This document shows positions 14,816 to 15,831 of a stretch of 64,000 nucleotides of DNA, one piece after another. The position numbers and the translations under genes were made by a program. The notes below the pieces were generated by a model that was given only the letters and a program-made list of their open reading frames with translations, was not told the origin of the DNA and did no database searches. The number at the start of each line of letters is the position of its first letter. The first letter of the stretch is position 1. This DNA is from Escherichia coli (GTDB taxonomy: Bacteria; Pseudomonadota; Gammaproteobacteria; Enterobacterales; Enterobacteriaceae): the NCBI RefSeq assembly GCF_016026235.1, contig NZ_CP065613.1. One strand, 5' to 3'.

Positions 14816-15004
14816 ATGAACATTTATTTCAGAATAGTTATATCACTGGCAATTATCGCATGTATTTACGGATTAATCGTTCCGGCCCTCATATCAATGA
14901 AGGATACGGTAGCAGTGATTTCTGGCTTTGCTCTGGCGTGTCTGACCCCGCCCTGCATTTATGCCATTTATAAGGGTCTTTCTTTCCCCGGGAGGGAAAA
15001 ATGA
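14816..15004 (+). CDS. small membrane protein (two predicted TM helices)
   Basis: 62-aa hydrophobic ORF overlapping the start of the SPFH gene (ATGA). Confidence 0.5.
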   Translation: MNIYFRIVISLAIIACIYGLIVPALISMKDTVAVISGFALACLTPPCIYAIYKGLSFPGREK

Positions 15005-15831
15005 AAAAAACAATTGCGCTTGTTTTCGCGGTCAGTCTGGCTGTCTTCGGACTTGTAGGTTGCGATCGCGTTGAACCAGGTAATGTGGGTATCAAAGTCA
15101 ACAAACTGGGCGACGACAAAGGTGTCGGTGAGGTGGTCGGTGTTGGTCGCTACTGGACTGGCTGGAATACTGAAGTTTACATTTTCCCGACCTTCAAGCA
15201 AATGAAGACCTACGATGAACCGTTCAGTTTCCAGATGAGTGACGGCACAACCATCGGCTATCACATCGGCGTGGCCTACAAAGTTGATCCATCCAAAGTT
15301 ACCACGGTGTTTCAGACTTACCGCAAAGGCGTGGATGACATTACCAACACCGACCTGCGCCAGAAGATCGCCGACGCACTCAATCGGCTGGCCAGCAAAA
15401 TGACCACCGACAAATTTATTGACGGCGGTAAATCTGAATTACTGGATGCCGCTCTAAAAGACATCCAGGAAGAAATGACACCCATCGGTATTCAGGTAAT
15501 GAGCCTCTCATATGTGGGTAAGCCAGAGTACCCACCAACCGTTATCGACAGCATTAACGCCAAAGTCACGGCAAACCAGAAAACACTGCAACGCGAGCAG
15601 GAAGTTAAACAACGCGAAGCAGAAGCCAACATGCTGCGTGCAGAAGCTGCCGGACAGGCTGATGCGATTCGCACAAAAGCCCAGGCCGAAGCCGATGCAA
15701 TTCGTTTACGCGGTGAAGCTCTGCGCCAGAACCCCGGTGTTATGGAGCTGGAAGCCATCAATAAATGGAACGGCACACTGCCGCAGTACATGACCAGCGG
15801 TGCCAACACACCATTTATTCAGGTTAAGTAA
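15001..15831 (+). CDS. SPFH/band-7 (stomatin/prohibitin-like) domain lipoprotein
   Basis: Signal peptide with lipobox LVGC; SPFH-like core; Ala/Glu/Gln-rich coiled-coil C-terminal region. Confidence 0.8.
   Translation: MKKTIALVFAVSLAVFGLVGCDRVEPGNVGIKVNKLGDDKGVGEVVGVGRYWTGWNTEVYIFPTFKQMKTYDEPFSFQMSDGTTIGYHIGVAYKVDPSKVTTVFQTYRKGVDDITNTDLRQKIADALNRLASKMTTDKFIDGGKSELLDAALKDIQEEMTPIGIQVMSLSYVGKPEYPPTVIDSINAKVTANQKTLQREQEVKQREAEANMLRAEAAGQADAIRTKAQAEADAIRLRGEALRQNPGVMELEAINKWNGTLPQYMTSGANTPFIQVK

Follow-up and report, generated by a model that had tools for sequence, protein, structure and literature searches.

What could a lambdoid prophage gain from an SPFH protein of its own, encoded together with a small membrane protein? 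This question is raised by a stretch of 64,000 nucleotides (nt) of an Escherichia coli chromosome (RefSeq assembly GCF_016026235.1, contig NZ_CP065613.1; the whole stretch is referred to below as the window), which contains a lambdoid prophage at mlrA (yehV). At positions 14816–15831 of the window two overlapping genes on the + strand encode a protein of 62 amino acids (aa) with two hydrophobic segments and a 276-aa lipoprotein with an SPFH (Band 7) domain. A first-pass annotation, made from the sequence alone, had suggested that the pair might tune the lysis-lysogeny decision through FtsH and CII or act as a membrane-based exclusion module. Here we report that the two genes form a widespread two-component membrane module present in virulent as well as temperate phages, whose probable role is in lytic infection, at the cell membrane, and not in the choice between lysis and lysogeny.

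The gene for the larger protein (15001–15831, + strand, 276 codons plus stop; WP_000750829.1) already carries the product name 'SPFH domain-containing protein' in RefSeq. Pfam Band_7 (PF01145) was found at residues 23–209, spanning model positions 2–176 of 176 (E=6.3e-31), and in PHROGs the protein matched phrog_200 'lipoprotein' (1e-114). An AlphaFold2 model built on 110 diverse relatives reached a mean predicted local distance difference test score (pLDDT) of 93.8 and a predicted template modeling score (pTM) of 0.75. In this model an SPFH alpha/beta core (residues 21–176; 15061–15528) starts at the lipid anchor, with the first strand beginning within 2–4 residues of the lipobox Cys21. The core is followed by a single long helix rich in Ala, Glu and Gln (residues 179–243, about 65 residues; 15535–15729), which resembles the CC1 wall helix of SPFH cages and aligns to the coiled-coil regions of HflK and prohibitin, and then by a short helix (245–255) and an extended tail. 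The most conserved C-terminal motif is K-W-N-G-T-L-P (15763–15783), in which W256 is invariant and G258 and P261 are nearly so; by analogy this part would close the crown of a cage. The SPFH-like core and long helical tail described in the first-pass annotation, which had proposed a structural check of the fold, are borne out by this protomer model and its full-length structural matches to prohibitin, HflK/C, erlin, stomatin, flotillin and QmcA, of which prohibitin, erlin and HflK/C are the closest. As modeled, the mature product is a canonical SPFH cage protomer.

In a search of the family profile against solved structures, prohibitin-1 was the best match (2.8e-10, nearly full length), followed by prohibitin-2, HflK, QmcA and HflC, and the same search did not reach stomatin, flotillin or erlin. 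The profile matched HflK at 2.7e-11 and HflC at 8.4e-11. Judged by these comparisons, the protein represents a phage-borne clade of its own within the SPFH superfamily, on the prohibitin/HflK/C side. An HflK or HflC orthologue was rejected, since the protein scores far under the equivalog cut-offs and is encoded by one SPFH gene.

The N-terminus carries a lipoprotein signal peptide (15001–15063) ending in the lipobox L-V-G-C, with Cys21 at 15061–15063. The sequence MKKTIALVFAVSLAVFGLVGC conforms to the signal peptide and lipobox pattern [LVI][ASTVI][GAS]C, and Cys21 is conserved in at least 90% of the 110 diverse relatives, so that the product is predicted to be exported and lipid-modified at this residue. 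Cys21 is followed by Asp at position +2 (15064–15066) and Arg at +3. In the Lol sorting of E. coli, Asp at +2 is the classical signal for retention in the inner membrane. In about 30% of the relatives an uncleaved transmembrane (TM) anchor replaces the lipobox. The Asp at +2, these TM-anchored relatives and the fusions to an alpha-helical hairpin described below all point to a location in the inner membrane. Among E. coli phages, conservation of the mature SPFH part exceeds 90%, and the signal peptide and the partner protein are far more divergent.

The smaller gene (14816–15004, + strand, 62 codons plus stop) is named 'hypothetical protein' in RefSeq and is left unannotated in the reference records of phages phiP27 (locus L005, 5006–5194) and RCS47 (locus L003, 4730–4966). 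Several lines of evidence demonstrate that it is a real gene under purifying selection. The ratio of nonsynonymous to synonymous polymorphism (pN/pS) over 27 alleles is 0.31 in frame versus 1.23–1.27 in two off-frame controls, the product matches phrog_1130 'membrane protein' in PHROGs (2e-23), and the gene keeps its place next to the SPFH gene (see below). Direct reading of the sequence also reveals a strong Shine-Dalgarno motif, AGGAGG, at 14807–14812 (+ strand), 3 nt before the ATG. By hydropathy the protein contains two hydrophobic segments, TM1 at about residues 7–26 (14834–14893) and TM2 at about residues 32–52 (14909–14971). It is predicted to form an N-in/C-in hairpin with both termini in the cytoplasm, because positive charges lie at the termini and the turn between the helices is short. 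The turn V-P-A-L-I-S-M-K-D-T (14879–14908), predicted to be periplasmic, corresponds to a family signature, [VLAI]-P-x-[LMF]-[ILV]-S-x-x-[SD]-[TS], derived from a gap-free alignment of 17 split and fused members, and the same motif is present in N4-type, rV5-like and metagenomic members.

The two genes overlap by the four bases ATGA, the ATG of the SPFH gene (15001–15003) overlapping the TGA of the small open reading frame (ORF; 15002–15004), exactly as the first-pass annotation had described. A strong Shine-Dalgarno motif for the SPFH gene, GGAGG (14991–14995, + strand), is read within the 3' end of the small ORF, as is usual for coupled genes. This motif and the overlap at 15001–15004 indicate that the pair is translationally coupled.

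The association of the two genes is not peculiar to this prophage. Among 80 close relatives from IMG/VR, an intact small ORF adjoins the SPFH gene in all 79 loci that could be evaluated, with an overlap of 4 or 20 nt. An exhaustive family search yielded 225 representative clusters with E<=1e-30; at the looser limit of E<=1e-3 there were 3,004. At essentially all of about 26 distant loci the partner was present, if divergent variants of the motif are included; the loci that first seemed to have no partner carry a divergent version of it. Where the genes are separate at distant loci, the partner is encoded immediately 5' of the SPFH gene, in many cases overlapping it by the same 4 nt, and in phages 4MG and TL it is one gene away. 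With a profile of five small proteins we further detected N-terminal fusions, 330–392 aa long, in which the hairpin precedes the SPFH protein; they make up about 15 of the 142 representatives of full length. The fused proteins consist of the hairpin, a linker, a signal-like helix with a retained lipobox Cys and the SPFH domain, and the Cys is kept in all 14 metagenomic fusions as well as in a close E. coli relative (P0002). The phrog_200 profile likewise includes about 80 extra N-terminal positions. The hairpin is thus an obligate partner of the SPFH protein, linked to it by adjacency, coupling and fusion.

Several other identities were considered for the two proteins and rejected. The label 'serine protease', given to the larger protein in phiP27, many Stx2 phage records and some others, does not agree with the finding of Band_7 as the only Pfam domain and with structural matches to SPFH scaffolds only, and appears to be a carried-over misannotation; some phage records name their copy 'prohibitin family protein'. 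A spanin pair was dismissed on position, size and fold (276 aa, SPFH fold, Asp at +2). In the reference strain the prophage lysis cassette (holin, RrrD lysozyme, lysis protein) sits elsewhere. The small protein is not an NfeD protein: it has neither NfeD (PF01957) nor an OB-fold and gave no Pfam match even at E<=10, and in the fused member P0145 Band_7 is the sole Pfam domain shown, with no NfeD. Nor is it a relative of YjeT, the small membrane protein encoded after hflKC, for which the hhalign probability was 0.8%.

The SPFH protein was found by tblastn in 384 of 50,697 phage records. Temperate carriers include the lambdoid phages phiP27 and Fraca, the 186/P2-like phage P88 and the P1-like phage-plasmid RCS47. 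The virulent carriers comprise N4 species, the rV5-like phages 4MG and SSE121 and LUZ24/PaP3-like Pseudomonas phages including TL, and members of further virulent groups, namely the FelixO1-like phage phiEa21-4, phiCbK-like phages, one crAss-like phage and Lak megaphages. Across strictly virulent phages the identity level of the cassette is 38–80%; N4-like virulent phages share 62–80% with this lambdoid prophage, and the N4-like phages Pastis and KpCHEMY26 share 72–80%. In E. coli, 570 of 5,426 complete genomes (about 10%) carry the SPFH gene, on chromosomes and, among the matches listed, on plasmids of about 86–111 kb, which is the size of P1-like phage-plasmids. This distribution suggests that the pair is a mobile, exchangeable accessory cassette and not a core gene.

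Distant metagenomic members always sit among early and replication genes. It should also be noted that in L006 (218–520), within a series of small early genes of an accessory, counter-defense character, a fused member is found two genes downstream of the gene for an Acb2/Tad1-hairpin protein, an anti-CBASS/anti-Thoeris sponge, and that another family member (L011) is near a T7 gp5.9-like gene. In the N4-type phage VEc25 an acidic soluble 104-aa protein assigned to phrog_1510 'superinfection exclusion', a label that is annotation only, is encoded just upstream of the pair (L012, 2913–3227).

Next to the pair, the organization of the prophage is that of a lambdoid early region. On the + strand, a cI-like repressor ORF (11523–12218) is followed by a hairpin resembling an intrinsic terminator, which ends the repressor transcript (12230–12246, + strand; a 7-bp stem with 5 GC pairs, then a T run). 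A strong promoter-like site comes next, a pL-like candidate that would head the operon with the pair (12282–12310, + strand; TTGACA-17-TAATAT, 10 of 12 matches, by pattern scan only). Downstream are a gene for a helix-turn-helix (HTH) protein, which PHROGs places in a family with the label 'CII-like regulator', four small ORFs, one of them ParE-like, a 130-aa ORF and then the pair. The pair is followed by genes for an ORF6N antirepressor-like protein, a beta-clamp-domain protein and a DUF4222 protein, and by xis, int and the mlrA attachment site.

Between the pL-like candidate and the pair the pattern scan detected no promoter-like site nearer the pair than 13602, and none resembling a promoter or a terminator directly 5' of it. 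Because of the latter, the pair reads as part of the repressor-controlled leftward operon, within its variable accessory stretch. Its placement in the early-left operon by the first-pass annotation was therefore topologically right. The accompanying statement that the pair occupies the place of lambda cIII applies only loosely; the accessory stretch that holds the pair is variable and extends from the promoter-proximal genes to xis. No lambda-type cIII or cII was recognizable in this prophage.

The expression setting in other phages is of the same kind, the cassette being placed in early or repressor-controlled operons throughout. In P88 the pair belongs to the cox-to-repA early operon. In RCS47 a perfect bipartite P1 C1 operator, of which 0.04 would be expected by chance, lies upstream on the same strand, and no sigma-70-like site was found before the pair. 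In the N4-type phage VEc25 the pair (gp19/gp20 equivalents) follows the RNAPII genes, and in the TL record a sigma-70 early promoter is marked immediately ahead of the partner gene. The pL-like candidate in this prophage, with no promoter-like site of the pair's own, together with the P88 early operon, the RCS47 operator and the TL early promoter, suggests that the cassette is expressed in lytic development and not from the resting prophage.

Several observations concern the neighborhood of the pair. Apart from the positions of insertion sequences (IS), the window is 100% identical to strains VL46, CFSAN029787 and VL40. In VL40 (L001, 15798–16954) another IS600 is inserted directly upstream of the small ORF and separates the cassette from the operon promoter. 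In the window, xis is interrupted by an IS600-like element of the IS3 family on the minus strand (17713–19072 region; orfA 18734–19072, orfB 17868–18707). With no more than the first 49 codons of xis left (17713–17862), excision of this copy of the prophage is probably defective. The insertion appears to be missing from VL46 and CFSAN029787, which are covered to 87% in two pieces. A 189-aa ORF at 16621–17190 is named 'beta clamp domain-containing protein' in RefSeq and gave weak DnaN matches, and its PHROGs label, phrog_3007 'RusA-like Holliday junction resolvase', conflicts with this; a phage-borne partial sliding clamp would be unusual. A 72-aa ORF (14148–14366), to which RefSeq gives the name 'ParE family toxin-like protein', overlaps the 3' end of the 71-aa ORF at 13961–14176, and the two may be a toxin-antitoxin pair in the early-left operon. 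In total, the prophage contains three ORF6N/KilA-type antirepressor-like genes (15875–16624, 9931–10704 and 9054–10076), of which the first lies directly 3' of the SPFH gene; the same neighbor follows the pair in phage Fraca.

How might such a cassette act? Our best explanation, offered as a tentative one, is that the coupled genes produce a periplasm-facing SPFH assembly in the inner membrane during early lytic growth and that this assembly encloses a membrane patch or a host client. Asp at +2 would keep the lipoprotein in the inner membrane, at its periplasmic face, on the same side as HflK/C and topologically like prohibitin and erlin. The lipoprotein would assemble into a ring or cage fencing a patch of membrane, by analogy with structurally solved SPFH proteins, and the hairpin would supply a transmembrane component, as the N-terminal helices do in HflK/C and NfeD/YbbJ does for QmcA. 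The cassette would be expressed early in lytic growth from repressor-controlled or early promoters, as its gene position in seven phage types suggests. Up to this point, that is, for an exported, lipid-anchored SPFH protomer with its hairpin, an inner-membrane ring or cage and an early lytic accessory cassette, we consider the scheme likely to be correct.

The least certain step is that the assembly would enclose or shield a conserved host inner-membrane component with a periplasmic part. Prohibitin and HflK/C work with FtsH-type proteases, and both form cages for proteases of the FtsH family. FtsH is ranked first among the candidate clients because these are the nearest characterized relatives and because the target must be widely conserved. 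If FtsH were the client, the turnover of FtsH-labile phage or host membrane proteins would be changed during infection, and in temperate phages a side effect on CII-type regulators could follow, as a by-product at most. Proposed by analogy, FtsH is a possible client, if on the whole a rather doubtful one. In the most far-reaching version, the hairpin and the SPFH protein would together build a viral membrane cage that faces the periplasm and corresponds to HflK/C and prohibitin. Phages as different as N4, rV5-like, LUZ24-like, crAss-like, P1-, P2- and lambda-like ones would make this cage within minutes of infection, and it would capture FtsH or another conserved inner-membrane machine and rewire membrane-protein turnover for the virus; in N4 it could be the missing sensing component of superinfection exclusion or lysis inhibition. 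So complete a picture is unlikely to be right.

Some observations weigh against the proposed inner-membrane assembly and its client. Oligomerization, localization and client are all taken from analogy, and the FtsH link draws on family precedent. In NCBIfam the only matches were to HflC and HflK, and these remained below the cut-offs (TIGR01932 hflC, 25.5 vs 134.4 bits; TIGR01933 hflK, 22.8 vs 159.4). HflK and HflC form a heterodimeric pair, whereas a single SPFH gene is present in the window and at every locus inspected. In many relatives the +2 residue is Ser or Thr, which under E. coli rules would direct the protein to the outer membrane; sorting rules vary between taxa. In one metagenomic phage (P0134; L008, 8001–9035) the hairpin is fused at the C-terminus of the SPFH protein, which does not fit a simple N-in/C-in topology, and in another (L099, 3750–4010) the partner gene is encoded downstream of the SPFH gene. 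Finally, the prophage SPFH protein PM0222 of Pasteurella multocida has been reported from both lysogen cells and outer-membrane vesicles (PMC9872710). If it were a member of the family, it would contradict both retention in the inner membrane and expression restricted to lytic growth.

After FtsH, superinfection exclusion and then membrane protection or counter-defense come next in our ranking. Exclusion would operate in lytic growth, the hairpin and the SPFH layer altering or covering the inner-membrane entry site of a second genome in the manner of T4 Imm and Sp, whose parts list, an early small inner-membrane protein and a periplasm-exposed anchored protein, is the same. In VEc25 the pair adjoins the phrog_1510 gene, and the PHROG category of the small protein is 'moron, auxiliary metabolic gene and host takeover'. 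In a preprint on N4 lysis the exclusion system of this phage is stated to be uncharacterized, and superinfection is thought to trigger its lysis inhibition (PMC12642591). The repressed operons of the temperate phages, however, would leave a lysogen unprotected, no model of PADLOC-DB 2.0 was matched at E<=0.1 by either protein or by three neighbors, and the phrog_1510 label is mere annotation. Moreover, exclusion proteins are normally specific to one entry route, whereas the mature protein is 62–80% identical across N4-like, lambdoid, P2-like and P1-like phages of differing receptors and entry routes and is recognizably conserved as far as Bacteroidota phages. We give exclusion a low probability. 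Protection of the membrane is somewhat less probable still: here the assembly would stabilize the inner membrane or the proton-motive force during a long infection and so delay premature lysis or blunt abortive-infection effectors that depolarize or permeabilize the membrane. Bacterial SPFH and related scaffolds have been connected with tolerance of membrane stress: HflKC is tied to aminoglycosides and oxidative stress (PMC10434171), an SPFH stress module is described in Bacillus subtilis (bioRxiv 2026.02.06.704340), and the carriers include phages with a long latent period or lysis inhibition, such as N4. The Acb2/Tad1-hairpin and gp5.9-like counter-defense genes beside distant members would fit as well, but this neighborhood evidence comes from two loci only. 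Among more than 60 rapid-lysis mutants of N4 the region of the pair is not recurrently struck and the mutations do not map to it (PMC12642591), and an SPFH protein neutralizing a defense effector would be without mechanistic precedent.

The remaining two explanations place the pair in lysogeny. If its primary function were to modulate FtsH-dependent stability of CII, it would in effect replace cIII. Modulation of this kind was suggested in the first-pass annotation and had been proposed for SPFH genes of other phages (PMC4936722; PMC10269572). What survives of this proposal is its setting, since the pair is real, lies in a repressor-controlled lambdoid leftward operon that begins with the 'CII-like regulator' HTH gene, and has remote homology to HflK/C. 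Its core does not survive: because strictly virulent phages, which make no lysogeny decision, commonly carry the cassette, a lysogeny-specific role was rejected as the core function of the family. Its carriage by P2-like and P1-like phages, which decide by circuits that have no relation to that of lambda, speaks against such a role as well. The prophage itself has no recognizable cIII or lambda-type cII, and lambda CIII acts from the cytoplasmic side whereas the SPFH protein is predicted to be periplasmic. Such tuning as the primary function is improbable. More improbable yet is a lysogenic-conversion or virulence lipoprotein, expressed from the prophage and carried on the surface or in vesicles to the benefit of the bacterium through serum resistance, adhesion or signaling by Toll-like receptor 2 (TLR2). 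This explanation draws on PM0222, an HflK/C-like SPFH protein of 25–35 kDa whose deletion attenuated virulence in mice (PMC9872710), and on the frequency of the gene in clinical E. coli. PM0222 is only a putative member of the family, and the repressed early operons, the carriage by virulent phages and the Asp at +2, which predicts retention in the inner membrane, argue against it, and the TLR1/2 phenotype is unspecific because any triacylated lipoprotein stimulates TLR1/2.

The SPFH identity of the larger protein, given in its RefSeq name, is not new, and the FtsH idea is not original: a phage SPFH protein modulating HflKC, FtsH or CII is already in print as speculation for other phages in the two papers cited above, and the role of phage SPFH proteins has been called unclear (PMC13239085). 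In the literature searched we found annotations and speculation and no paper that describes experiments with a phage SPFH protein of this type, the sole functional study of a prophage SPFH protein being that of PM0222; none of the papers found gives the pair an established function, in line with the first-pass annotation. The CRISPRi-ART and phage transposon-mutagenesis papers contained no data on the two genes. To our knowledge, no viral SPFH protein has a demonstrated function, and the obligate partner has apparently been described by no one. What is new here is this partner, its fusions and the spread of the cassette into virulent model phages.

SPFH cages are the subject of intense structural work, with structures of HflK/C, prohibitin, erlin, stomatin and flotillin obtained in 2022–2026. 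The phage cassette is abundant, being present in phages, in E. coli, in the model phage N4 and in P1-like phage-plasmids, and it is small and genetically tractable. Identification of its client would reveal how the inner membrane is manipulated by phages at an early stage of infection and could bear on the components of N4 exclusion, the system being unidentified according to PMC12642591, and of lysis inhibition. For annotation, our results correct the recurrent 'serine protease' label and establish the unannotated upstream 62-aa ORF as a real gene.

Comparison with known systems shows both what the cassette shares with them and where it departs. PM0222 (Pmorf0222) of P. multocida is a similar-size SPFH protein on a lambda-like prophage (PMC9872710); it differs in being reported from vesicles, expressed in the lysogen and framed in terms of host-cell signaling, and it is a candidate member of the phage clade. 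Lambda CIII shares with the pair the leftward early operon of a lambdoid phage and possibly FtsH as a target. However, CIII is a 54-aa cytoplasmic peptide with an amphipathic helix, the SPFH domain would lie on the opposite side of the membrane, and the pair falls in phrog_1130 and phrog_200, not in a cIII family. The T4 proteins Imm and Sp offer a functional analogy: in this virulent phage, too, a small protein of the inner membrane is made early together with a periplasmic one anchored to the membrane. Sp differs in being an inhibitor of lysozyme, 97 aa long, and not an SPFH protein, and no relationship in sequence or fold is expected.

In SPFH-NfeD operons such as E. coli QmcA-YbbJ (PDB 8z5g), an SPFH gene is likewise adjacent to, co-oriented with and transcribed together with a small membrane-protein gene, fusions occur, and a scaffold is combined with a membrane partner inside the fenced patch. 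The phage partner differs in having 62 aa and no NfeD or OB-fold, and QmcA, a weaker match than prohibitin and HflK, faces the cytoplasm whereas the phage protein is predicted to face the periplasm. Prohibitin 1/2 make up a cage of the mitochondrial inner membrane that is associated with m-AAA/FtsH-type proteases; its SPFH domains face away from the matrix, toward the side that corresponds topologically to the periplasm. The prohibitins differ from the phage protein, which is about 15% identical to them: they are organellar proteins of eukaryotes, anchored by a TM segment, that form a hetero-oligomer from two paralogues and have no hairpin partner. HflK/HflC, the periplasm-facing cage around E. 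coli FtsH, are only 14–19% identical to the phage protein and are anchored by a TM helix instead of a lipid. They share with it the SPFH core, the long wall helix and the C-terminal cap, as well as, according to prediction for the phage protein, attachment of the N-terminus to the inner membrane with the SPFH domain on the periplasmic side, and the host operon, too, contains a small membrane-protein gene, yjeT, located after the SPFH genes.

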